DNA of 64,000 nucleotides from IMG/VR virus record IMGVR_UViG_3300037827_000551, positions 1-64,000 of that record, one strand, 5' to 3'. Position numbers and translations under genes: made by a program. The stretch's first letter is position 1; every line of letters begins with the position of its first letter. The notes under the pieces are model-generated. The model was given only the letters and a program-made list of their open reading frames with translations, was not told where the DNA came from and searched no databases. This document shows, piece by piece, positions 10,051 through 63,847 of this stretch. This DNA is from a virus.

Positions 10051-10716
10051 TTGTTTTGTAGCCAGTCAGCTAGTCGAAAGACGCCCGTGAGAAGGAGAAA
10101 TCATGCTCCACTAGATCGTCAGCGAGGCCGTGGCTATTCCCCACAGAAGTGCGTTCAAATGTGGGTTCGGGCCCAACGCCCCGACCAGTCCACCAAGAAG
10201 ATCGCCGAGGCCGAGGGGATCTCTGAGAGTTACGCACGCAAGCTAATCGCCAGGGGTCATGATCACGCGGTCCAAGGCAAGATACCAAGGATGCTGACGA
10301 TTATGAACGGCCAGCCGATGATTAACGGTGTACCCAATTGCAAGCACGGGAGGCCGATATTGCCGGGTGAGCCGCTGAACTGTGTTGACTGCGACAAATC
10401 CGGCAACGACCATTTGATTGCCATGCGGCCGATCCTGGACAAGAAGCCAAAAGCCAAAGAACCACCGAGGTTTCAGCCTAACATCAAGGACCAGAAGGCG
10501 AAAATTGTGAGCCCAAGCGAATGGATTGTGGCGTTGCCCAACGGAAAGATTCACCAAGTCAGGGCCAGAACCAAAGATGAGGCCAAGGTGATACTGAGGA
10601 AAATTCTCAACCTCAAGCCAAAGGAGAACGTTCCTCGGGGCACCGTATTCCAGAGGGCGATTGATGGGGTGGCGAAGGCGGTTAAGGCCAAGGTTGCGGG
10701 AAAGGGAAGGCCGTGA
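10051..10716 (+). CDS. HTH + Zn-binding putative transcription regulator; start region appears frameshifted
   Basis: STKKIAEAEGISESYARKLIARG HTH and CKHG..CVDC. The RBS-associated ATG at 10103 is out of frame. Confidence 0.6.
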   Translation: MFCSQSASRKTPVRRRNHAPLDRQRGRGYSPQKCVQMWVRAQRPDQSTKKIAEAEGISESYARKLIARGHDHAVQGKIPRMLTIMNGQPMINGVPNCKHGRPILPGEPLNCVDCDKSGNDHLIAMRPILDKKPKAKEPPRFQPNIKDQKAKIVSPSEWIVALPNGKIHQVRARTKDEAKVILRKILNLKPKENVPRGTVFQRAIDGVAKAVKAKVAGKGRP

Positions 10717-11178
10717 GTGAATACAAGGTCGATCTTCAGTATTTGATTTTGGAATGGACTGCGATTGAAGCGGAGGAGCGCGAGAAAGGAAGGTCTGACT
10801 ACCTAAAGCTTGTGAATGCGACCATCAACAGGCTATTGGAGTCCGCCACCTACGAAGAACTCCAAAAATTTGGAAAAATTACCCAGGCATGAATTCTGGA
10901 TGGGCACACGGAAAAGCCATGACAAAACGCCAAAAGAGAAGAGAGCGGCTTGCTCAAACTTGCGAGGGGATCGCCAAGCGAGGCAATCCTGAGATGGGGA
11001 TCAAGCCATGGAGGAGCGAGATTGCAATGGAATTGCGAGCGACGAATCGTAGGATTGAGATGAAGAAATCACGAGCGTAAACCGACCTCGGAAAGACCTC
11101 ATGAACGCCTACAGTCGTTACCGTATTGACTGGGCTCGTGCTGGCAACTTGGAACCAACCCTAACCCGAAAGGACCCC

Positions 11179-14801: not shown

Positions 14802-15107
14802 ATGGGTGTGGATATCCCCGATCTCCCTGGATGGCGAAAAGGCAAGCCACCATACCAGGGTTGCTGGTTCGTGAAATCCAAGGACGGATCGGTCGACATC
14901 GCCTATTTACAGGGCGACCTCTGGATTCACAGTTACGCCAGGAACTGGCTAGACAGATCGGTCGACATCACCTATTTACAGGACGCCCCCGCGATTTCCG
15001 AGGACGATCCAGTCGTCTACTTGCTGAAGACCGGAAGACTTGGGTTGATCTCGGAAATCATCGCCTTCGCTCCAATCCAATGGCCAGATGGGGAGCCACC
15101 GGAATGA
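14802..15107 (+). CDS. Hypothetical protein carrying an in-frame 69-bp duplication/insertion
   Basis: GAGG RBS; DGSVDIAYLQ...DRSVDITYLQ internal duplication. Confidence 0.65.
   Translation: MGVDIPDLPGWRKGKPPYQGCWFVKSKDGSVDIAYLQGDLWIHSYARNWLDRSVDITYLQDAPAISEDDPVVYLLKTGRLGLISEIIAFAPIQWPDGEPPE
14883..14988 (+). repeat. Repeat-spacer-repeat: 37-bp direct repeats around a 32-bp copy of 48091-48122
   Basis: R1 14883-14919 and R2 14952-14988 (4 mismatches); spacer 14920-14951 matches 48091-48122 at 30/32. Confidence 0.85.
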
Positions 15108-15108
15108 C

Positions 15109-15957
15109 ATGGGAGTGGATACCACTGTGAGTGAATTACCAGAATACAGCCAAACTCAATATGAAGTGAACTTGTTGCGACACGAAGTGAACTTATTGCG
15201 ACACGAAGTGAACTTATTGCGACATCAACGCGACAGAGCGCTGGCCATGCTAGCCCGAACCGAGAAGGAGCGCGAAGAGATTCGGAAAGAGTTAGCTGAA
15301 TCAATGGAGGGTGATGTGTCGCTCATCTCGGATTACGCGGATATTCGCACGGCTCACATCCAATCGTTGGCTGAAATCGAGATGCGCGACCGAGAGATTG
15401 CCAACCTGGCCAAGCAGCTCGAAAGCGAGCGAGAGTGCCGTCAGTCCAAGCTCGTCATTATTGAAGAACAGCAACTCAACGCCAAGCAGGCTGAGCGGAT
15501 CGCGGGGCTGCTCGGGACGATCAAAGCGGCAGTCGAGTCGCTGGGTCGAGTGCGGGAATTTTACAGTAAGACCGGATTGCCGTTTTCGTTTCCAGCGACA
15601 TGCGAATCAGTACGACAAATTCTCAAAGCCGAGTTGGGCCGCAAGGTGGGCGCGGAGATCTTGCGGCGGCGTGATCTGATTGACCCACCAGTAAACCTCA
15701 AATCCGATCGACTTAAGCTCTCGGTGGACTGGGCACGAGACGGAGAGGACGAGAGCGTGTTTCTGGTCACGGCGACATTGGACAACAACACAACCAGAGT
15801 ACTCGCAACTGGGTCTTTCCCGGCGGATGCCTTGACTGTTAGCGAGGAGTCACGCAACCCAATCACTGGCAACCCGGCCGGAACTGACACAGAAATGGTA
15901 AGGTTGCCAGACGGAGTGCTAGTGCAAGAGTGTCATGACAAGGAATCGCACCGATGA
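15109..15957 (+). CDS. Coiled-coil hypothetical protein with a 21-bp tandem repeat
   Basis: EVNLLRH x3 (GAAGTGAACTT(G/A)TTGCGACA at about 15163-15224). Confidence 0.65.
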   Translation: MGVDTTVSELPEYSQTQYEVNLLRHEVNLLRHEVNLLRHQRDRALAMLARTEKEREEIRKELAESMEGDVSLISDYADIRTAHIQSLAEIEMRDREIANLAKQLESERECRQSKLVIIEEQQLNAKQAERIAGLLGTIKAAVESLGRVREFYSKTGLPFSFPATCESVRQILKAELGRKVGAEILRRRDLIDPPVNLKSDRLKLSVDWARDGEDESVFLVTATLDNNTTRVLATGSFPADALTVSEESRNPITGNPAGTDTEMVRLPDGVLVQECHDKESHR

Positions 15958-18708: not shown

Positions 18709-19029
18709 ATGCCCATGCAAATCAACCTGGACGGGGGATCGAGTCTCGAAATGGCGGCGATCCCGTACAGTCGGGAGGAGACAATGTACACGCAAGCAGT
18801 GAACCCGCAAAGCCTTCGGGCTGCGCCCCAAGCATCAATGCCAAGCCGAATCTTCCGCATTCTAGCCAAGCGCCCTGATATTCTGATCACGCTCGCCCTC
18901 GGCCTGATCGTTTTGATTTGCTCGGTCATGAGCGTGGTCGTCAATCGGGCCAAGCACGCCAAGCTCCAGGGCGAGATTACCCGGATCGAGCAGCGACTGG
19001 ATTCGCATCCGGCGGCGAGCCATCACTGA
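18709..19029 (+). CDS. Membrane protein with C-terminal coiled coil (lysis-associated candidate)
   Basis: GAGG RBS; TM helix ILITLALGLIVLICSVMSVVV. Overlaps the alternative ORF 18600-18878. Confidence 0.5.
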   Translation: MPMQINLDGGSSLEMAAIPYSREETMYTQAVNPQSLRAAPQASMPSRIFRILAKRPDILITLALGLIVLICSVMSVVVNRAKHAKLQGEITRIEQRLDSHPAASHH

Positions 19030-20314: not shown

Positions 20315-20578
20315 ATGATTGACATCGCGATCGAAACGATCATATCTCTCAAGGATGCCGCGAAACGATTTCCACCAGGTCGCGGAGGGCGTCCAACCCA
20401 TCACTCTACGCTTTGCCGCCTAATTCAAGAGCGCAAACTCGAAGGCATTCGCATGGGAAGCCATTGGTGTACCAGCGTAGAAGCTCTTCAGCGGTACGCA
20501 GACCGAGAGACTGCAATAGCTTTAGGAAACAAACCCGTTAGGCGACCCTACTGGAGTCACAATGAAGACGGTGAATGA
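20315..20578 (+). CDS. DUF1580-like excisionase/MerR-type HTH DNA-binding protein (typical of Planctomycetes)
   Basis: MIDIAIETIISLKDAAKRFPPGRGGRPTHHSTL...LEGIRMGSHWCTSVEALQRY. Confidence 0.8.
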   Translation: MIDIAIETIISLKDAAKRFPPGRGGRPTHHSTLCRLIQERKLEGIRMGSHWCTSVEALQRYADRETAIALGNKPVRRPYWSHNEDGE

Positions 20579-26320: not shown

Positions 26321-26350
26321 GATCTGGTCTTCCCTTCGGGGTTCGGGGTT

Positions 26351-26857
26351 TCAGGCTCCAACCTGAATCATTTTTTCAAGGCATTCGAGACAGTTGGCCC
26401 GGATCTCGGCGGAGGACGTGGCGGACTCGGCGTCGCCCTTGGCACACTCGGTGGCGTACCAGGCGGCGCACTTGGCGGCGTACTCGGCGGAATTGGTGGT
26501 GTACTCGGCGTACTCGGCGGACTTGGCGGACTCGGCGGCGTACTTGGCACACTTGGTGGCGTACTTGGTGGCGTACTCGGCGGCGGACTCGGCGGCGGAC
26601 TCGGCACACTTGGCGTACTTGGCGGACTCGGCGGCGTGCTCGGCCGCGTACTCGGCCGCAATTTCCGCTCTTGCAACCATGCACGCCAGATCACACCTTG
26701 TCCCGACGATTCGCGGAATAAACGGCTTCAAGTCATCGCGGTGATTCGCGAATAATTCCGAGTCGTTGAGCTGAGTTACGTATACCCCGATTACAGGGCA
26801 TACGCTCCCATCTCCACCAGCGAGCCGGTCGTCAGTCTGGCTTTTGATCGTCGTCAT
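26351..26857 (-). CDS. Chimeric copy of gene 18-617 with the first 7 codons of gene 26900-27112
   Basis: High nucleotide identity to about 135-590; N-terminal MTTIKSQ identical to the upstream gene. Confidence 0.8.
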   Translation of the reverse strand: MTTIKSQTDDRLAGGDGSVCPVIGVYVTQLNDSELFANHRDDLKPFIPRIVGTRCDLACMVARAEIAAEYAAEHAAESAKYAKCAESAAESAAEYATKYATKCAKYAAESAKSAEYAEYTTNSAEYAAKCAAWYATECAKGDAESATSSAEIRANCLECLEKMIQVGA

Positions 26858-26899
26858 CGCGTTCGGTCTCCGTTCGGGGTTCGGGGTTCGTGGTGAGTT

Positions 26900-27112
26900 T
26901 CAAAGTCCCAAAAATCCGTCCTTGAACCGCACTTTGTACTGCGAGCTGATCGCCCGTGCCCGGAAGATCAGGTTTCCCAGGATGACGGCGTGATTGTTGC
27001 GATCAGTGGCCGACCGGTCCGCGTCCTGGGAAACCTGATTCGCGAATTCGATCCGGCTTCTAAGGCTCGCGATGGCTTTCAGTGCGTCGGCCTGGCTTTT
27101 GATCGTCGTCAT
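26900..27112 (-). CDS. Small early protein, first gene after the strong promoter
   Basis: AAAGGA RBS; follows the promoter at 27156-27184. Confidence 0.7.
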   Translation of the reverse strand: MTTIKSQADALKAIASLRSRIEFANQVSQDADRSATDRNNHAVILGNLIFRARAISSQYKVRFKDGFLGL

Positions 27113-29056: not shown

Positions 29057-29356
29057 ATGAGATGCTGCGACAAGGAGGCAAAGTACCAAGTTACTCCGGA
29101 ACATGTCCTCGAATACGTCTACAGTCGCCGCGCCACCATGACCGTCATTGAGTTTCAAGACCAAGTCATAGCCTCGGTTAGCGTCTTGGACGGACTGATC
29201 AATGCCCATGAAATTGGTATCTTTGGGGCTGTGGAGTCCTGTCTAAAGCAGGAGGCCACCCTTATCGCCCAGGGCAAGATCACAGGTGGGACATCGGTTG
29301 GCGATCGGATTTTGGCTGATCATCGGGATATGCCGAAGCTGGAGGTGGTCTCGTGA
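29057..29356 (+). CDS. Hypothetical protein
   Basis: GGAGG RBS; packed ORF. Confidence 0.55.
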   Translation: MRCCDKEAKYQVTPEHVLEYVYSRRATMTVIEFQDQVIASVSVLDGLINAHEIGIFGAVESCLKQEATLIAQGKITGGTSVGDRILADHRDMPKLEVVS

Positions 29357-29739
29357 TCCCATTCGCCATTTTCGCCACAATCTCATTCGCCGTCTGGTTA
29401 ACCCTCTGGGGCCTCGATCGCTTGCCATGGCGGCGATCCGCCATCCCAGATCCAAAGGTTGATCCAGGGCCATCGATCTCGCTGACGCTCAGTGGGGCGA
29501 CGACATCTTGGACTAACGACACCCGCTTCACAGTCACGGGCCTTACCTCGGCGGTAATGACAATAAAGACGAGTGATACGGGATTCACGATTCTAAAGCC
29601 GGACCCGATCACGCCGGCCCCATTTTTCGGTGACGGCCGCACGATCAATCATGTCCGCGATGGTGATACACCTACGACGATCCCGGGATGGGCGTCGACA
29701 CCGTTCTACCTCGGCGGTAATGACAATAAAGACGAGTGA
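29353..29739 (+). CDS. Membrane-anchored protein with an IPT-like fragment and a 36-bp direct repeat
   Basis: N-terminal TM helix; ISLTLSGATTSWTNDTRFTVTG resembles [18 protein letters not shown] of the 2378-aa protein. Confidence 0.55.
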   Translation: MIPFAIFATISFAVWLTLWGLDRLPWRRSAIPDPKVDPGPSISLTLSGATTSWTNDTRFTVTGLTSAVMTIKTSDTGFTILKPDPITPAPFFGDGRTINHVRDGDTPTTIPGWASTPFYLGGNDNKDE

Positions 29740-29742
29740 TAC
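29544..29742 (+). repeat. Exact 36-bp direct repeat TACCTCGGCGGTAATGACAATAAAGACGAGTGATAC (29544-29579, 29707-29742)
   Basis: Identical copies separated by 127 bp. Confidence 0.9.
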
Positions 29743-40755: not shown

Positions 40756-41203
40756 TAACCCCATCAGCCCTGATTCAATGAAAAAGGGCGTCGCGTCGAT
40801 CCAAAAGCCAACGGAACCTCTACGGCTTGGGCATTCGGAAGAGAGGTTGCCCGGTTCGGGCTACAGCCCGAAGAACCTCTGTTTCTACGAGCATGTTTCG
40901 CCAAAGTCGATTATGATCGGCGGTCGAGTCGTCGCGACCGGCGAAGTGATTGCGATCACATCGGAAAAGGAAATCCCCAGCAAATTCTCGCTACAGCCCG
41001 ACTACCTTTCCACGAGCCGGGCGAGCGAATTGATCAAAGGGAAGTTCGGCCGCGAACATCCAGGCCCGGCGACGGTCTCGATTCGCAGGCCAGATGTTGA
41101 GGATGTGCTCAAGAGTTACGGGTTCCAGCCCAAGAGCCTGATGGGCAATCGCATGACCGTCGCACCCCCGGAGGCCGTGAAACAGAAAGCGGGGGCGTTT
41201 TGA
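40748..41203 (+). CDS. Hypothetical head-region protein
   Basis: Packed ORF after the capsid gene. Confidence 0.6.
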   Translation: MPDNPISPDSMKKGVASIQKPTEPLRLGHSEERLPGSGYSPKNLCFYEHVSPKSIMIGGRVVATGEVIAITSEKEIPSKFSLQPDYLSTSRASELIKGKFGREHPGPATVSIRRPDVEDVLKSYGFQPKSLMGNRMTVAPPEAVKQKAGAF

Positions 41204-41451
41204 TGAGTGTGAATTGTGGCAAAGTTCTGCCGCTTGGTTCGGTTCACCACTCTATCCACACCGATTACTGGTTCGGCGACACAGTCTATCTCAGGGTTCG
41301 CTCCGATCGCCACAAGGGGATGATCATCGGCATCCGTCTTTGGCCCGACGGCCTGGCTTACAATGTCACGTGGGGTTACAGTGGAGCCGAAACGCCGCAT
41401 TATGGGATGGAGTTGACCTCGGAGTTCGAGTCGGATTTGGGGGTTATTTGA
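41200..41451 (+). CDS. Small SH3-like phage protein
   Basis: FGDTVYLR...GMIIGI..P.G..Y.V.W...HYGMEL. Confidence 0.6.
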   Translation: MMSVNCGKVLPLGSVHHSIHTDYWFGDTVYLRVRSDRHKGMIIGIRLWPDGLAYNVTWGYSGAETPHYGMELTSEFESDLGVI

Positions 41452-41720
41452 TGCCAGGGAATGGACCAGCGCCAACAGGGCAAAAGCCGTCGCCGCCGCC
41501 AGCACCGCCATTGCCGAAGAATTTGACCTATGGGATTCAAGTGACGAACCGAGAAATCAACGCTGTGCCAGCAACGCCTCCTGCCCAATCATGGAAGCCC
41601 ATGGCTCGTTTGCCGCAGATCGACCCGATGGTTATGCTGGAGTTATTGAAGGCCGGCGTGATGACCAAGGACGAGGTTCGGGAGAGGCTGGGGCTGTCGA
41701 AAGAGAGCGAGAAGTCATGA
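41451..41720 (+). CDS. Pro-rich small protein; its first 38 nt are the source of the insert at 62677-62714
   Basis: TGATG overlap; MPGNGPAPTGQKP; C-terminal AGVMTKDEVRERLGL is portal-like. Confidence 0.6.
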   Translation: MPGNGPAPTGQKPSPPPAPPLPKNLTYGIQVTNREINAVPATPPAQSWKPMARLPQIDPMVMLELLKAGVMTKDEVRERLGLSKESEKS

Positions 41721-46299: not shown

Positions 46300-49200
46300 A
46301 TGAGCTGGGTTTTCGTACAGCACGCATTCCAGGGTGGCACCGCCTCGCAGGCATCGGTCACGCTCGCTATGACCAGTGTCGTCGTCGGCGATCTTCTGAT
46401 TGCCACGGTCTCGTTCTTCACCGGCACCCACACACCGTATTCGCTCAGTGATTCGAGCGGTAAGAACACGTGGACCGCCGGAGTTCTCCAGGGCATAACG
46501 ACAAACGTGTGCGTCCAGGAATGGACAACCATTGTCCAGTCCGGTGGCGGCGGATCGATCAACGTCGAGGTCCAGACGGCATCCAGTACCGACTTCATGG
46601 GCTTGAACGTCGACGAATATTCCTTCCTCCAGGGCGCCACGATCACACTCGGGACGCTCGCCCATGCAACCGGCGCCTCACCCACGGCGATCTCCAGTGG
46701 CAACGTGAGTTGGACCGGAACCGGCAATTTCCTCCTGTGGGGGGCGGCGGCATCCGCGAACGCGACGGCCACGTGGTCCGCCGGCACCAATTTCAACCTT
46801 CGCTGCAATCAACCGCATGCCACGGGCTACGAAGCCCTGATGACCGAGGATCAACTCAATCTCACGTCGGCCGCATCGCCGATCCCAATCACAGCCGGGT
46901 CAACGGCGACTTCCGGAGACTGGGTGGCGATCGGCCTCGCATTTTTAGAAACGCCAGCGATCGCGATTACACCGGCCACCGTCCCCGCCAACCATTCCGG
47001 GCACATCACGCTCACCCTGGTCGGAACGGGGACGTCGTGGCTTGGCAGTCCGACCTGGACCGTCACTGGGGCCGGAACCTCGTATGTCGCCGGGTCGGCA
47101 ATCGTTACCACGAATACGGCCGCGACGATCAAGGTGACGACGTCTGGCTCGACGGGGCTCGCGACGGTCTCTGACGGCACGTTTTCCGGTCAGTTCACCG
47201 TCGCCACGGCAACCCTCTCTGTCGTGCCGGCGGCCGTTGGGACAAGTGTGACAACCAGTCTTACGTTAACCGGAACGAACACGCTCTGGACAACCGAGAC
47301 GGCGTCAACCCTGTTCTCGGCGTCAGGCGTCTCGGGAACATCGATCACTGGGGCGAGTATCACTGTCTCGTCCAATACGGCCGCCACAGCCAATCTCGTC
47401 AGCGGTTCGACTGTCGGCACCGCGACGATCACCGACAATAGCACGACAGCCACGGATACGGTTGTTGTCGAGGCCAATTTCCCAACGATCACGCCGAGTC
47501 CGACGATTGTTCCCGTGGGCATCGGCACAACGAATTACGCAACTTTGCCCAGCAGCTTGGCATCGTCGCCTGTTCTGGTCACCCTGGTCGGATTCAACAC
47601 GGGCTGGACCGGCGGCACGACATTCACCGTTTCTGGGGTTGCTGGCTGCTCGGTCGTCGCGGCATCGACAGTTATTACCTCGGCGACCCTGGCTTCGTTC
47701 TGGCTCGAAACGGCTAAGGCTACGGGCACGCTTACGATCACCGACGGCTCCTATGAGTGCACAATCCAGGTCGTTCCCGGAGCGATTGTCGGGCAGGCTT
47801 ATGTATGCCGAAGTGCCGAGACCTTATATTTCTTTACCTATCCGGCAACCGACGCTCCGCTGACGCTTGCTGGCACCTCATCAAGTCAGTCGCTAACCTA
47901 TGCCATCGTCAATACGACGACCACTAACGGCGGCACTGGTTACACCAGCCCCATCGCCTCGATCGTCGGCGGCGTTTCGATCACTCTGACGGCTGGCGGC
48001 ACAGGCTATGGTTCGGCTCCGACCGTGGAAATCACCGGTGGTGGCGGCACGGGCGCCAGTGCGACCGCCCTGATCTCGGATGGAGCCGTCTCTGGATTCA
48101 CGGTTACGCCTGGAACTGGCTATCAGTCGGGCATGCCGATCACGATCACCATGATCGGCGTCGGCACGGGGGCGGCAGCCACGGCGACAGTTATTGCCAA
48201 TGGCGGTACTGGATGCCAACTGGGCACACCGATCGTGTCCGCCGGAGTCATCACTGGGATTCCAGTTGTAACGACCGGCAGCGGTTATACGGGCGCTCCG
48301 TCAATCACGATCACTGATTCGACAGGAGTGGGAGCCACAGCGACACCGATCTTGGGGGGCAATCCACTCCTGATCACGGGCGGCACCATGAACCCGGCCG
48401 CTCCGATCACCGCGATCAACGGCGTACCCACGATCAAGGTCAATGGCAATTCCGTCGAAGTGCCTTTGTATATTAACTCTTATCCCATCAGCAATCCCGG
48501 AACGGCTTACGCTTCAGCTCCAATTGTAACCGTATCTGGGGGCACGGGCACCGGGGCGGCATGCACGGCGGCGATCACGGTAGCAGGCCAAGCCAGCCTC
48601 CTGCTGACCAATGGCGGTAGCGGGTATACGACTCCGCCAATCGTCACCCTGAATGCCAGTTCGTCCGGCTCCCCGGCTGTGGTTCAGACCTTCATCGCTG
48701 GTGGCGCGGTCGTCGGCTTCCGCGTCACTCAGTCGGGCACCTACGCTACGACACCGACAGTGACGATCACGGGTGGTGGCGGTGGCACGGGACTGGCCAT
48801 TACCGCATCAAACGCCGTGGGCTGCGTTTATTCAATCACGGCGTCATGTATCGGAAGTAATTATCTATCGACGGACACGATCACAGTCTCGGTGGCCGCC
48901 GGGGCGGGCACAACAGCCGTGGCGAACTCGCTCATTGGGCCGATCTGGGGAAGCCAGTCCCTGAGTGCCCCATTCGTGGCCTATCAGACCATGTGCGGCG
49001 GCGTGGCGTCTATCGTAGTTCAAGCCGGAGGTAGCGGTTACACCAATCCCACGGCGACGGCCAGTGGAGGCGGAGGAACCGGTCTCGTACTGGGAACGCC
49101 AATCATCGCTGACGGCGTGATCACCTCAGTTTTGGTGTCGGGAACTGGACCTGTTTCCAATCAAGTCGGCATCGTCGATGCCAATGGGACGGGCAGCGGG

Positions 49201-52200
49201 TTCGTTGGCTATTACAACAGTGTCGCCAATTCAATCACTTCGGTCACGATCGAGAATGGTGGAGCAAATTACTCGGCTTCGGGTAGCCTGACCGCCAAGT
49301 CGATCACCTCGAATACGAGCCAGGGTGACGTCGCATCGAACCCAGTTTATAGCACCGTTACCCCATCCAACGGTGTGATCGTCTCAATCCCCGTACTGTC
49401 TCCCGGAATTGGGTACACCTCGGCCCCGACGATCACTATCACCGACCCCGGCGGAAGCGGTTCAGGGGCCGTCGTCGTGCCGATTATGACCGGGCCGGCG
49501 GCGACCGATACGGTCACGTACTCGGCCCCAGCGGGATGGCTATCCACATCGGTCGGTACGGTGCCGGCAGCGACGAATGCCCCGGTTTACAATTTTGGCG
49601 GATCGCTTGAGCCCGCATTTTCGCAAGCCCCTGAAACCATGCTCATGGGCATGAACATTAACCCACTCTATGGTTACGGGGCCGGCAAGAATATCAATCA
49701 AAGCTGGCTCAAATGGGCTCTTAACTGGACCGGAGCAACGGCTCCGATTTCGGCGACGACACAGCTAAGCGGGGCACTCTACTCGATCGCTGGAGCCACA
49801 ACCACAACCGGAACCCCGACGACGCTCACGTTCGCGTCAGCTCCGACAGTCAGTATCGTCAACCACTACGTTTGGTTCCCTGGAGATTCGTCAGGCGGAA
49901 TCTACTTGATCGCGTCAGGATCAGGGACCTCGTACACGATCTCGCCCGGATTTGGCGGTAGTGCTGGCCTTTCTGGAATCACCTGCCAGATCGTGCCAGC
50001 AACTTCACTGGCGGTCTACAACGGGGCATCCGACACGGCGGGCGGTGGCGCGATTATCACGGCGACTGTCAATGGATCAGGGGTGATCACCAGCTATACG
50101 GTTCTCTATGGTGGCTCGGGATACACAGCGACACCAAAGATATTTGTGCCGCCTCCGGTTTCCGGGGGAACCCAAGGTTCGGCGACGGCGACCATGTCGG
50201 GTGGGTCGGTGACGGCGGTCGCGGTCAACACAGCGGGAGCCGGGTACACGAATTCAATGCTCAGTAGTTATCCGATGGCAATCGCCACGGTTGTTAGCGG
50301 ATCGGCGACCGTCACGTTTTCGGCATCTCAGGCCAGCCTTATCGGCAACTACATCTGGTTTTCGGGCGATTCGAGCGGAAGCCTTTATTCGGTTACGGCG
50401 GGCAGCGGCTACTCCTGGACGATTAGTCCGGTATTCGCTGGCAATTCCGTCGCGGAGACACAGGCTTTTATCTCCCCCAAGACCAACATCGTGGCCTATA
50501 ACGCGGCCTCGGATATCACGGGTGCGGGGGCCATCATCGCGGCGACCGTGAGCAGTGCCGGAGCAATCACTGGGTTTACGATCCAATCGGGCGGTGGCAA
50601 TTACACGACGGCTCCGTCGATTCAACTACCGGCACCGGCATCGGGCGGATCGCAGGCTTCGGCGGGAACGGTGACCGTTTCAGGCGGCGGGATTACAAAC
50701 ATCGCGGCCGGCACGCCTGGTTCTGGCTATGCGGGATCGACGGTCGATGGCCACCCGATCGCAATCAACGGAACTACGAATCCACAAGGAGCCGCATCAA
50801 CTCCAACGGCTTACACGGTATTCGCCGATACGGGTCACTCGCAAACCACGGGAACCACGGCGGCTCCATTGCCAGATCTCTCGGGGGTCTGGACATTCAC
50901 CGCCAGCGAATCGAATCCCAGTTCTCCAATGACGGCGACGGTCTACTCGGGAACAACGCCGATCACGGCGGTTCCGGTGAGTGGACCGAATATCGGTGGT
51001 GTCGTCAGCAAGACATGGCAATTTACGGTTCCAAGGAATATCCCTGGATTCTCACTTGTTCTTCTGACTGAAGGCTCTGGATATACCGGCACGCCGACAG
51101 CCGCATTCACGGGCGGCGGTGGCACCGGAATGACCGCCACAGTGCTGACAAATGCGGCCGGAAATGTGATCGGCCTAAAATTAACCTCGATCGGCACCGG
51201 GTACACGTCGGCTCCAAGTGTGGCGATCTCGGGGGCTGGAACCGGAGCGACCGCCCAAGTCTTGGCTTTGGGAAACTCGCAGCTCAATCTCTCGCTGGCG
51301 ATTGCCGGGCCATCGGCCGGGGCAGGTTCGGCCTACACACTCTCTAATGAGTTAATGGTCGCCCCTGTTCGCGGTACGGGAGCGGCGGCGGTTCCAAATC
51401 AGTCGAACCTGATGGCGCCCGACGTCAACATGGTGTCGTGGTTGTCGTTGCCCAATGGTTCGGGAGCGGCAACTCTTCGTTGCTGGCCGATGCAGAACAA
51501 CGCCTGGTACACGAATGTTGTTGATGTCAGTGATCTTCGTCCAGAAAACGATTTCACGTGGGCCGATGGAACTCAAAGGAATACCGCATTCACGGTCACG
51601 GCGATCAGGCAGTACCAAGTTTCCACGTCTCCTTATGTGTTCACGTCGAATAGCGGATATGCTCCAGCGAATACCACGGGCTATCCCGGCACGATGAGCA
51701 GTTCCGGCATCGCTGGAGCACCACTTTCCAATTGCTGGACGCCAGCGAATATCCAGTGGGCCGGATTCGGGTTTAGCGGCAACACTTGCATCGTCGCCGA
51801 GTTCGTCACCGCAGCGGCACACGGACTTCGCACCGGTCAGGTCATCACGTTTCCGGGCACTCCTTGGCTTGCGACACTGCCGGTATTTGATGCCAATTTC
51901 AACTCGGGGGCAGGGCGGAATATCGTCACCTCGCTTTCGGGAATCACTGTGACAGCCTTTGTGACCGGTGCCAACACGTTCGCCATTGGATTTAGTGCCA
52001 GTGCCAGCGTGATCACATCGGGTACTAATTCGGCCTACGTGATCGGCAATATTCCGTGCAACTTCGATGTGTCGATGGTATTCGAGCCGTTCTTCGAGGC
52101 TCCCCCTGTCGAAGCGTTCGTCGGCCTCTGTAACGCGGTTCCTGGTTGTGCTCTGCATATTTTTGTGCCCGACTTCGCGACCGACGCCTGTACGGCGGCG

Positions 52201-53436
52201 ATGGCTCAGCGGATTCGCGACTCGCTCGACGTCGGCCGTGATGTTTATATCGAGACCCATAACGAGCACTGGAATTCGGGCGGCTACTTCGTGCAGTATA
52301 TGGCCGCTTTCCAGATGGCCAATCTTTGCTCGGGATTCGCCTCAATCATTGGGTCGACCGGCAATGCGAACAACGATTTCTACACCTATGACTCGGCCCA
52401 CAAGCAGCAAATTTTCATAAACGTATTCAATCAAGAGGATATCAACGGCAATACCAATCGCGGCGACTCGATCGTGGGCGTTTTCGGAGCTCAGGCCACG
52501 GCGTCAAGCTCGGCCACGGCAATGGTTGCTTACGCCAACCGATTTAACGCCACGTCACCCGCGACCCCCGTGCAGATCGACGCCATCATGGCGGCCCCGT
52601 ATTACAATATTCCGACGGACCTGCCGATCGCCCAAGTGGCGGCGATGACCTATTCCAACTACCAGGGGAGCCTTCAGTATCAGTGTCTGACGCCATGGAC
52701 GATCGGTATGTATATCGACTTGTTCAGACACTATGCGCTCTATTGCTTGGCGGATAATATCGCGTCCCCGGCGAGCGCAATCCCGAATTACAATCTCAGT
52801 TTGGTTCCTGGACAGACCGTCCCCCCATTCATGATGTGCTATGAGGCCAGCGTTCAAATCCTGGTCTACACCCCGGTTTCAGTCACCGACTGGAGCATGC
52901 GAGGATATGTTGCCCACGACATGTATTTTCACCCCTACTTCGCTGACTTGAACCAAGCCTTTTATTTAGGCGTTCAGCAATCCGGAGCGAAAATCATGTG
53001 CTGCTTCGAGTTGTGCGCCCAGCGGTTCGCCGAAAACACGAACACGGCATTCACGCTCGTCCAGGGCGTACCAGACGGCTTTGGAGCGACCGTCGCCTGG
53101 GGCTTCGTCACCTGGGAAGGTATGGCTGCCGGTCGCGGAGATGGGACGCTCGACGAGAACGGTAATGCGACCGTCAATCAGTTTTTCAACAACGGCAACA
53201 ACACGGGTGGCATCGCCCAGGACCTGGACAACGTCTCGCCAAAGCTTCAGAGTTGGCGGAATTTCGCCGAAGCGGCCAACCCGATACCACCTCCTCCAGC
53301 GGGAAGCGGTGGCGGCGGCATCGCGGGACCTACCGAGGCTCAGCTCGCCATGGTGGCCTATCTGGGCAACATGCCACGGCGACGGCGGAAGAAATTCGGC
53401 GGCAAGATTCGGGGCGGGATGACCTTCTACGAATGA
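46300..53436 (+). CDS. Giant virion appendage protein: beta/IPT-like domains, GGSGY(T)-P repeats and a fragmented clan GH-A-like hydrolase domain
   Basis: Many (T/N)GG(S/T)GYT.AP.V...GG.G.GA.A repeats; [23 protein letters not shown] and MCYEAS motifs. Confidence 0.75.
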
Positions 53437-62422: not shown

Positions 62423-62576
62423 TCTGGGGCATGTAATACGGTTCCAGTTTCGGCGAATGGTTCGGTTTCCCCGCATGTAGATCGGGGACCGAGAGCCGCT
62501 CGATGATGAGCGACGCCGCGATAACCGAGGTGGCAAGCACAAGCCCGACGGCAAGGCACTGGATCATTCCACGCAT
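62406..62576 (-). CDS. Small membrane peptide
   Basis: GAGGAG RBS; MRGMIQCLAVGLVLATSVIAASLIIE. Confidence 0.45.
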   Translation of the reverse strand: MRGMIQCLAVGLVLATSVIAASLIIERLSVPDLHAGKPNHSPKLEPYYMPQITKVR

Positions 62577-63031
62577 TTCCGATTCTCCTCAATAAGCCCA
62601 AGAGCCGTTCTTAAGCACTCTTCCCCAAGTCTGACACAGTCAAATGAACGTTTCTCGCATTCATTGCATCTCTGGGATGCCAGGGAATGGAACAGCGCCA
62701 ACAGGGCAAAAGCCTCAAATGAACGTTTCTCGCATTCATTGCATCTCTGGGGGCAGACCCAAGATGGGTTACCGATGATCGCGGCTACATCTTGGGCGGT
62801 CGCAGTTTCCAGGTTTAACTGTTCAAGTTTGGCGAAGATGTCATCGCTGCGCTCGTCACCCAGTACTTCAACATCTTGTGGGTACTGCGATTTCCACCGC
62901 GATGCCACCGACCGGACTTGCTCTCGCTCATTCATGATTTGCACGCTATCGACTCCATCAAGAACCTGGGTGATCGACCGAAGATTTTCCGATCGGCTTT
63001 TTTCGACCGCCGTCGAGGTGGCATGCGACAC
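62564..63031 (-). CDS. Zn-finger phage protein carrying an in-frame 75-bp duplication/insertion
   Basis: RWKSQY...AAIIGNPSW..CNEC; QRCNECEKRSF duplicated. Confidence 0.7.
   Translation of the reverse strand: MSHATSTAVEKSRSENLRSITQVLDGVDSVQIMNEREQVRSVASRWKSQYPQDVEVLGDERSDDIFAKLEQLNLETATAQDVAAIIGNPSWVCPQRCNECEKRSFEAFALLALFHSLASQRCNECEKRSFDCVRLGEECLRTALGLIEENRKCVE
62640..62751. repeat. Repeat-spacer-repeat: exact 37-bp direct repeats around a 38-bp copy of 41451-41488
   Basis: TCAAATGAACGTTTCTCGCATTCATTGCATCTCTGGG at 62640-62676 and 62715-62751; spacer matches 41451-41488 at 37/38. Confidence 0.92.
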
Positions 63032-63476
63032 AGGCTGATCTTGTCGCTTTGGGGTTGCCTACGGCATTGACGATAACTCCGACGAGTTGATCATTGAGAT
63101 AAAGTTCGTTGGTTATGGGGTCGAAACAATCGAAGCGGATCGCGTCACCGCAAATCGAGCACGACCTCTCTTTTGCAACCGTCATCATAATCCGTCCTAG
63201 TTCTGGTTTTGCCTGAATTTTCGCCCATTCCTTGAAAATCACGTCGGGATCAAAATTCGTATTATTGGCGGCATTGAACCGCACCACGACAGCCTTGATC
63301 TCTCGTTCCCACACTTCATACGATTTGAGAAAGTTGGCTTGGGACACGGGCCAGATCAGGGCGAATAGCTCGGTTTTCACTTGTTCGTGGATTCCGGACA
63401 CCATTGCCACTGGATTGCGATTGAAGCGGAGGAGTGCGAGAAAGGGATCAAACTGAGCGTCGTCGTCGATCCTCAT
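62958..63476 (-). CDS. Hypothetical protein with CxxC motifs
   Basis: GGAGG RBS; ATGA overlap with the PEP-CTERM gene; CSIC...CVAC. Confidence 0.6.
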   Translation of the reverse strand: MRIDDDAQFDPFLALLRFNRNPVAMVSGIHEQVKTELFALIWPVSQANFLKSYEVWEREIKAVVVRFNAANNTNFDPDVIFKEWAKIQAKPELGRIMMTVAKERSCSICGDAIRFDCFDPITNELYLNDQLVGVIVNAVGNPKATRSACVACHLDGGRKKPIGKSSVDHPGS

Positions 63477-63847
63477 TGCCACTTCCTCCACAAAAGCACC
63501 GCGCTCAATCCAATAGCCCACAGAACCCACGACGATGGTTCGGGAACGCCTCCGCCTTGTGGTGGGCCTGGCGGTGACGAAGACTGCGTCACGTGTCCTG
63601 GAGTCGACGGAGGCGGCTCGCTCGCGACGAGTGACTCCTTGATCCATTCGCCGAGCCGGGGATGATAGTGAGTGAATCGCAGGGGATTGAGTTCGTACCT
63701 GGCCTCGATATAGATCACAAATGGCGTGGACGGTAGGATGTCGCCGTGGGTCTCGCGATAGGCTTCGAGGACCTTGTTTTCGTGGGCCTCAAAACTCCGC
63801 GTGATCCACTCGGGGTTGAATTTGGGTAGCGGGTCAACTCGGGACAT
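63473..63847 (-). CDS. PEP-CTERM sorting-domain protein
   Basis: C-terminal VPEPSSWVLWAIGLSAVLLWRKWQ (VPEP + TM + basic residues); GAGGAG RBS. Confidence 0.85.
   Translation of the reverse strand: MSRVDPLPKFNPEWITRSFEAHENKVLEAYRETHGDILPSTPFVIYIEARYELNPLRFTHYHPRLGEWIKESLVASEPPPSTPGHVTQSSSPPGPPQGGGVPEPSSWVLWAIGLSAVLLWRKWQ

Follow-up and report, generated by a model that had tools for sequence, protein, structure and literature searches.

How does a phage gene come to hold a short copy of another gene of the same phage, framed by an exact duplication of the surrounding sequence? The question is raised by IMG/VR virus record IMGVR_UViG_3300037827_000551, a linear record of 83,518 bp with a completeness estimate of 78%, of which bases 1-64000 make up the stretch analyzed here (the window). 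Close to the end of the window, two identical 37-bp segments at a spacing of 75 bp enclose 38 bp that are copied from a gene in the late region of the phage, and the whole arrangement, which we call unit A, lies within one open reading frame (ORF). A second arrangement of the same kind, unit B, is found at 14883-14988, and the coordinates of both are collected in Table 1. We tentatively read the two units as scars of ectopic (off-target) integration of CRISPR spacers into the phage's own DNA, and give this reading a probability of about 0.45.

Table 1. Positions of units A and B, of the sources of their inserts, of the reading frames that carry them, and of the DUF1580 protein of the same record.
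Feature	Position	Strand	Remark
Unit A, left copy of 37-bp target duplication	62640..62676	+	exact copy of 62715-62751
Unit A, insert of 38 bp (39 with shared G at 62676)	62677..62714	+	copied from 41451-41488
Unit A, right copy of 37-bp target duplication	62715..62751	+	
Source of unit A insert (ORF 41451-41720, first 38 nt)	41451..41488	+	late-region ORFan just after the head genes
Unit A host ORF, 155 amino acids (aa; also called as 123 aa), ORFan	62564..63031	-	
Unit B, left copy of 37-bp target duplication	14883..14919	+	33/37 against 14952-14988, period 69
Unit B, insert of 32 bp (33 with shared C at 14919)	14920..14951	+	copied from 48091-48122
Unit B, right copy of 37-bp target duplication	14952..14988	+	
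Source of unit B insert, inside 2378-aa gene 46300-53436	48091..48122	+	
Unit B host ORF, 101 aa; flanks and repeat coding in one frame	14802..15107	+	
DUF1580 protein	20315-20578		25.7 bits against a cut-off of 24.4

Anatomy of units A and B

Unit A had been noticed in a sequence-only reading of this DNA, which described an exact 37-bp duplication, an enclosed stretch matching the first 38 nt of a distant gene from its ATG onward, and a gain of 75 bp that keeps the surrounding gene in frame. All three points were borne out. When up to three mismatches are allowed, the 37-mer has two forward matches and no reverse match in the whole 83,518-bp record. The insert agrees with its source at 37/38 positions on the same strand, and two matches were reached in none of 100 shuffles. 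The ATG of the source, at 41451, and the TGA of ORF 41200-41451, which lies upstream, overlap; the bases before the ATG are TTTG. The final G of the repeat is shared with the base that precedes the source, and the unit can therefore be partitioned either as 36 plus 39 bp or as 37 plus 38 bp. The host ORF remains open throughout the 75-bp gain, and its stop codon overlaps the next ATG at 62576. Its C-terminal part, rich in Cys, extends from the flank through the repeat into the far flank; a coding signal, as judged by codon score, appears only in the N-terminal 280 nt, with none in the unit or in the last 25 codons. The ORF matches no Pfam or PHROG family. The minus-strand mRNA of this ORF carries, as a side effect, 38 nt that are antisense to the start of gene 41451.

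The repeat of unit A contains the inverted repeat AATGAA/TTCATT, to which the sequence-only reading had drawn attention. The sequence is there, but its significance is not: shuffled repeats fold at least as well in 81/200 cases on the plus strand and in 30/200 on the minus strand, and the hairpin is thus no better than chance. Upstream of unit A no promoter-like site is found for either direction of reading; 2 kb contain a single site, on the other strand, where 1.0 would be expected.

Unit A had also been called solitary, which it is not. Unit B was found by a scan of the record's short duplicates, and across periods of 40-140 in the record units A and B alone reach at least 33/37. The insert of unit B matches its source at 30/32 positions on the same strand (0/100 shuffles matched), and the source match starts exactly at the end of the repeat, with one base shared. 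Insert and source are read in different frames, which indicates a copy made at the DNA level, not a shared protein motif. The two differences between them (ACG/ACA and CCT/CCA) are synonymous in the frame of the source and non-synonymous in that of the target. Over the last six positions of the repeat, the two copies agree at 4/6, an outcome whose chance is ~0.04 by our own arithmetic. Codon scores in the frame of the host ORF are 0.03 for the left flank, 0.51 for the repeat, and 0.16 for the right flank, each being best in that frame; in the other frames the left repeat copy scores 0.02 and -0.69. As a reference, the averages for pieces of other ORFs are 0.08 in frame and -0.37 out of frame. 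Flanks and repeat are thus coding in one frame, which makes one of the repeat copies part of the gene. Of the two units, B is clearly the older. Directly downstream of its host ORF, in ORF 15088-15957, three tandem 21-bp units (15163-15224) read EVNLLRH three times.

The two units share a geometry. The duplicated segment is constant in length (37 bp exact in unit A, 37 bp at 33/37 in unit B), in two events of different age, and the inserts vary (38 and 32 bp); there are no terminal repeats. Both inserts fall within spacer length, about 30-40 bp, and both are copies of other parts of the phage genome, at distances of 21 and 33 kb. The junctions are blunt and alike in the two units, with a possible overlap of 1 nt at the first and 0 nt at the second. 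The gains of 75 and 69 nt are both multiples of three, as would be expected if in-frame insertions in tolerant genes were the ones to survive. The repeats themselves are unrelated in sequence between the units.

Recovery of unit A in other data and the nature of the repeats

Part of the stretch is present in 19 public runs. We examined the contigs of the four best runs (X1-X4), which are metagenomes of root, leaf litter, soil, and rhizosphere and belong to four studies (2019-2020), possibly of one campaign; runs X5-X19, with shares of 0.05-0.16, were left out and are not taken as evidence of habitat. The contigs of X2-X4 leave parts of the stretch uncovered, and such gaps carry no evidential weight. 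Contig record 6 of X1 (62647-62744), record 13 of X2 (62647-62797), and record 24 of X4 (62640-62744) cross from repeat through insert to repeat with 0 differences, and record 5 of X1 and record 19 of X3 join the left flank to the first repeat copy. Mapping raw reads over the junctions of unit A had been proposed as a check; in the contigs of the four runs, both junctions are present with 0 differences. The source locus of unit A, where it appears in contigs of X2 and X4, carries the same single difference from the insert. A separate 1388-bp contig of the Joint Genome Institute (JGI) encodes the whole 155-aa ORF together with the duplication and is identical at 154/155 residues, the sole difference being the start residue.

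An artefact of assembly or library preparation would explain why no Logan contig runs from flank to flank across unit A, each junction being covered separately with 0 differences. The words of those contigs have 31 letters, fewer than the 37 bp of the repeat, and the contigs therefore break there. Junctions without differences in X1-X4, from four studies, argue against an artefact, as does the same 155-aa ORF in the independent JGI contig; the copies of unit B have diverged, which an assembler could not invent. We consider an artefact barely credible. No contig joint in X1-X4 skips the 75 bp. This result is uninformative about an uninterrupted allele because all 31-letter words of the uninterrupted form would occur in the interrupted form as well and because contigs drop rare variants.

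An alignment of homologs had been suggested as a way to the uninterrupted allele, and it led nowhere: no uninterrupted allele was found, and the host ORFs of units A and B, like ORF C (62958-63647, described below), are ORFans. ORF 62564-63031 retrieves itself only among 26 candidates in a search of 5.8 billion proteins; its 18 pattern hits in viral_contigs include 0 relatives, and it is found in 0/5 related records at E values up to 10. ORF C likewise retrieves itself only, among 472 candidates. Compared with 1.84 billion representatives, the unit B ORF gives six matches at E <=0.001, namely, itself and five others, and no true homolog; the five are repeat proteins of 437-2953 aa at 22-44% identity, and pairwise alignment shows them to be weak repeat noise.

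The contig collections were scanned for the sequences of unit A with exact words, by which a repeat with two or more differences may be missed. The 37-mer has 0 matches in viral_contigs, neither 21-base half of the repeat occurs in genome_contigs, which covers 185,579 species, and its 23-base core is absent from metagenome_contigs. In Rfam the repeat has no CRISPR-DR match, and its two small nucleolar RNA hits (E 1.4 and 3.8) are chance. A likeness of the 37-mer to CRISPR repeats, which had been put forward for comparison, thus did not emerge from the collections searched or from Rfam. The insert of unit A behaves in the same way, with 0 matches of a 29-mer in metagenome_contigs and 0 of the 38-mer in viral_contigs, and its source gene occurs in 0/5 related records. 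A tblastn search of the source genes against 32 related loci and a local blastn search of the units and their sources both gave no matches.

The sequence-only reading had offered a nascent mini-array as one description of unit A, and a form of this idea deserves to be stated in full. A functional mini-CRISPR array borne by the virus would use host Cas proteins against related phages, and the one-base difference would spare the carrier. Known mini-arrays with 1-2 spacers do target close relatives, and the locus of the carrier is mutated in them, according to PMC6858448 and PMC11656645. In the present record the carrier locus differs from the insert at 1/38 positions in unit A and at 2/32 in unit B, and both differences of unit B are synonymous in the source gene, as would be expected of alleles of related phages. 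One central mismatch, however, normally would not prevent self-targeting. Known mini-arrays carry repeats that equal or resemble those of the host, whereas the unit A repeat matches nothing that was searched and the repeats of A and B are unrelated. Both units lie within ORFs and are read in frame, there is no upstream promoter-like site, the hairpin folds no better than shuffled sequence, and a related virus with the target was not found in viral_contigs or among the five relatives. A functional array is accordingly very improbable, and the earlier description of unit A as a mini-array did not hold.

Comparison with published elements leads to the same view. The virus-borne mini-CRISPR arrays of Medvedeva et al. 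2019 (PMC6858448; see also PMC11656645) resemble the present units in having one spacer between two repeats, in a virus without cas genes, and in the near-identity of the spacer to a virus gene. These arrays carry the repeat of the host, lie between genes, often have a leader promoter, and target related viruses; in contrast, the repeats of units A and B are local coding sequence and differ from one unit to the other, and it is the carrier that the spacer matches. RNA anti-CRISPRs (Racrs), which are solitary repeat units (Camara-Wilpert et al. 2023, PMC10651486), are likewise CRISPR-like pieces carried by phages, but they reportedly mimic host CRISPR repeats, and no host-like repeat is seen here. 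The units are neither mini-arrays nor Racrs. Judged from their sequences, the repeats of A and B are native target-site duplications and not a host CRISPR repeat, which rules against a mini-array of known type. The units are probably inert as CRISPR elements.

Mechanisms that could have produced the units

Ectopic spacer integration would account for the shared geometry as follows. A Cas1-Cas2 adaptation complex in an infected or lysogenic host, loaded with a phage DNA fragment of 32-39 bp, would attack a non-CRISPR site on a copy of the phage genome at two points, one on each strand and separated by 36-37 bp. Repair of the gaps would duplicate the intervening 36-37 bp and yield the order duplication, insert, duplication. 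The survivors would be insertions of 75 and 69 nt that do not close the ORF; they would lie in tolerant ORFan genes and become fixed there. For these events we infer the enzyme, the host, and the timing. The path itself has a precedent in canonical adaptation, where a half-site attack, a full-site attack one repeat length away, and gap repair give repeat, spacer, and repeat, as set out in PMC10212523. In an infected cell, the phage's own DNA would be the expected pool of prespacers. The sequence-only reading had named such a scar as one possibility. The spacer-sized copy of phage DNA, the repeat-length duplication, the overlap of 0-1 nt, and a second, independent unit with the same duplication length all favor it, and the part that names Cas1-Cas2 is drawn from geometry.

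Two further loci in the window bear on the choice of mechanism. Copy C (63411-63445) reproduces 35 bp of the small early ORF 10716-10886 (10755-10789) at 33/35 positions on the same strand (0/100 shuffles), and sits in the minus-strand ORF C, 660 bp from unit A. Its homology ends sharply, and a 10-bp flanking repeat (CATTGCCACT) recurs at period 72. There is no convincing 37-bp duplication around it: the flanks agree at 20-21/37, and 20 is reached by 3.1% of 3000 random places. Copy C was therefore rejected as a third unit, since flanks at 20-21/37 do not agree with the 94% identity between insert and source. The second locus is an exact 36-bp direct repeat (29544-29579 and 29707-29742) that encloses 127 bp (29580-29706). 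The gain of 163 bp is not a multiple of three; it gives ORF 29353-29739, which lies immediately upstream of the terminase genes, a replaced C-terminus. Neither the rest of the record nor 32 related loci contain a match to the 127-bp insert. The length of this 36-bp duplication hints that it may reflect the same ruler as that of units A and B.

Several observations weigh against ectopic spacer integration. The link to Cas1-Cas2 comes from the arrangement of the sequence, and a host CRISPR system with repeats of 36-37 bp is presumed. Cas1, Cas2, and Cas4 (PF01867, PF09827, and PF01930) have no match in the 83.5-kb record, and any Cas1-Cas2 must therefore be the host's. A protospacer-adjacent motif (PAM) of TTN type had been suggested for the unit A source, and it is not supported: the bases before the three sources are TTG, GTC, and GAA, those after them GTC, TCA, and AAG, and no PAM is shared. 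The landing sites share no motif either: whichever way they are oriented, 0-3 of 24 columns are identical, where ~1.5 would be expected. The copies keep the orientation of their sources in 2/2 clear units, or 3/3 with copy C, for which an integrase would have a chance of 1 in 4 to 8. Copy C has, as described, no convincing 37-bp duplication, and the 127-bp insert exceeds spacer size. Comparable units in related phages number 0 in 32 loci and 0 in 38 loci of 414,180 bases together. The PAM result is not decisive, as type III-linked adaptation needs no PAM. Six rows that did come from the 38-locus scan are tandem coding repeats of 75 or 84 bp in loci L010, L012, L028, and L040; that at 18388-18700 of L040, also seen in L010 and L012, is a Thr/Ala-rich repeat with a 75-bp period in which whole units stand in tandem, not a duplication, an insert, and a duplication.

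Direct orientation and the missing motifs would be expected of a Cas-independent process that duplicates and inserts by a length ruler of its own, copying ~32-38 nt from the replicating genome and duplicating the landing site for about 72 nt per event. The gains of 75 and 69 nt, together with the 72 nt given by the period of CATTGCCACT at copy C, would suit such a ruler; all copies are direct with respect to their sources, and there is no PAM and no common target motif. The phage also encodes a YqaJ-like exonuclease and a DUF2303 protein, which are recombination functions of its own. Against this stands the constancy of the duplication (37 and 37) while the insert varies (38 and 32), which is the pattern of CRISPR and not that of a constant sum; the 36-bp duplication with its 127-bp insert and gain of 163 bp breaks a constant sum outright. 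We know of no enzyme or mechanism that would act in this way. The constant duplication suits a CRISPR-like ruler better than a constant sum, but weakly, and with three or four events and an in-frame filter the two models are indistinguishable. On balance, we regard a Cas-independent ruler as a serious rival, though a rather unlikely one.

Replication template switching of the microhomology type had been named as the alternative to Cas1-Cas2. A strand would leave its template after the repeat, copy 32-38 nt at a distant site on another copy of the genome, and return 37 nt back. Many copies of the phage DNA replicate in one cell, every copied insert is direct to its source, and the right-hand junctions of A and B fall in runs of five G or five C, all of which would favor such an event. 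Templated insertions of the kinds known as microhomology-mediated break-induced replication (MMBIR) and fork stalling and template switching (FoSTeS) do combine a short distant copy with a local duplication; their junctions are usually microhomologous and their lengths vary. The units differ in both respects, with an overlap of 0-1 nt and a 37-bp duplication in two events. The ~2 nt or more at both switch points that this mechanism would call for are not found, the overlap being 1 nt plus 0 nt in both units. The same 37-nt backtrack would have to occur in two independent events, and the sources lie 21 and 33 kb away, on either side. The alternative is thus weakened by the missing microhomology and by the equal duplication length in two events, and we judge it improbable.

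Ectopic spacer integration, by comparison, has a described counterpart. Nivala, Shipman and Church (2018, Nat Microbiol 3:310) have reportedly observed non-canonical spacer integration by Cas1-Cas2 and called the products 'neo-CRISPR' loci. Units A and B resemble these loci in having a spacer-sized insert at a non-CRISPR site and a repeat-length duplication of the local target sequence. They differ in that the neo-CRISPR loci arose in Escherichia coli over-producing Cas1-Cas2 with supplied oligonucleotides, according to PMC7054753, whereas the present units are natural, fixed in a phage genome, made from its own DNA by a presumed enzyme, and in frame in ORFs. Integration outside the array by Cas1-Cas2 in E. 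coli over-making these proteins is also related in citing papers (PMC7054753, PMC6698737, and bioRxiv 10.1101/148544). The units would appear to work like off-target spacer integration, of which a link to a resident CRISPR system, here presumed, is the defining part. Casposons, which are integrated by a Cas1 homolog, the casposase, offer a further comparison as Cas1-family integration with target duplication. A casposon leaves a target duplication of ~14-15 bp around a whole element with terminal inverted repeats, and neither the ~14-15-bp duplication nor the terminal inverted repeats are seen here. We know of no phage case with the geometry of duplication, insert, and duplication. A literature search found no description of spacer-like integrations inside a phage genome, with most subscription journals and supplements outside its coverage.

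The carrier phage and the meaning of the units

The record belongs to a tailed phage from soil or roots. PHROGs assign terminase, portal, protease, HK97-type head protein, and head-tail adaptor genes at 31-43 kb, and the identity of its TerL to those of cultured phages is <=35%. Pfam was run on 89/135 ORFs, the remaining 46 being mostly shorter than 100 aa plus structural genes, the latter covered by PHROGs; it matched methylases, HNH, ParB-HTH, DUF1580, DHFR, the YqaJ-like exonuclease, and HTH proteins. A six-frame search of the whole record found no match to PF00589 (tyrosine integrase) or PF00078 (reverse transcriptase). All 20 other homologs of the DUF1580 protein (Table 1) are metagenomic, and its Atlas taxa are mixed, with Pseudomonadota by features and Planctomycetota by structure, so that the Planctomycete host assumed in the sequence-only reading stays a candidate. 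At the end of a small minus-strand ORF, 63473-63847, lies a PEP-CTERM sorting motif (PF07589; 21.9 bits, cut-off 20.7), which hints at a Gram-negative host with an exosortase.

Other repeats of the record are of different kinds. An Ala/Glu/Tyr-rich repetitive gene is present as three diverged copies, at 1-620, 26340-26900 (inverted), and record positions 83090-83518, which match over 141-205 bp at ~90% identity. A 28-bp repeat with one mismatch, which contains a palindrome, is found between genes at two places far from each other, 65112-65139 and 82807-82834 of the record (1112-1139 and 18807-18834 of locus L035), and may be an operator. Two similar stretches of ~80 bp in L035 (record positions 75816-75879 and 78553-78619), 2.7 kb apart, with small indels and an end resembling a ribosome-binding site (GGAGG), probably represent a duplicated gene-start region.

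Should spacer integration have misfired in units A and B, they would be natural, fixed examples of a reaction so far demonstrated mainly in E. coli over-making Cas1-Cas2, and they would show the adaptation machinery to be capable of writing into its own invader. They would also point to a way in which seeds of the repeat-spacer-repeat form, and perhaps viral mini-arrays, originate. They would also provide a host fingerprint for an uncultured phage, pointing to a CRISPR system with a repeat of 36-37 bp and spacers of 32-39 bp, and show a route by which phage ORFan proteins gain insertions of 23-25 residues. If the process is instead Cas-independent, the units would reveal a mutational mechanism with a ruler that has so far gone unknown, and this mechanism would newly account for peptide insertions that keep the frame and for CRISPR-like seeds of the repeat-spacer-repeat form.

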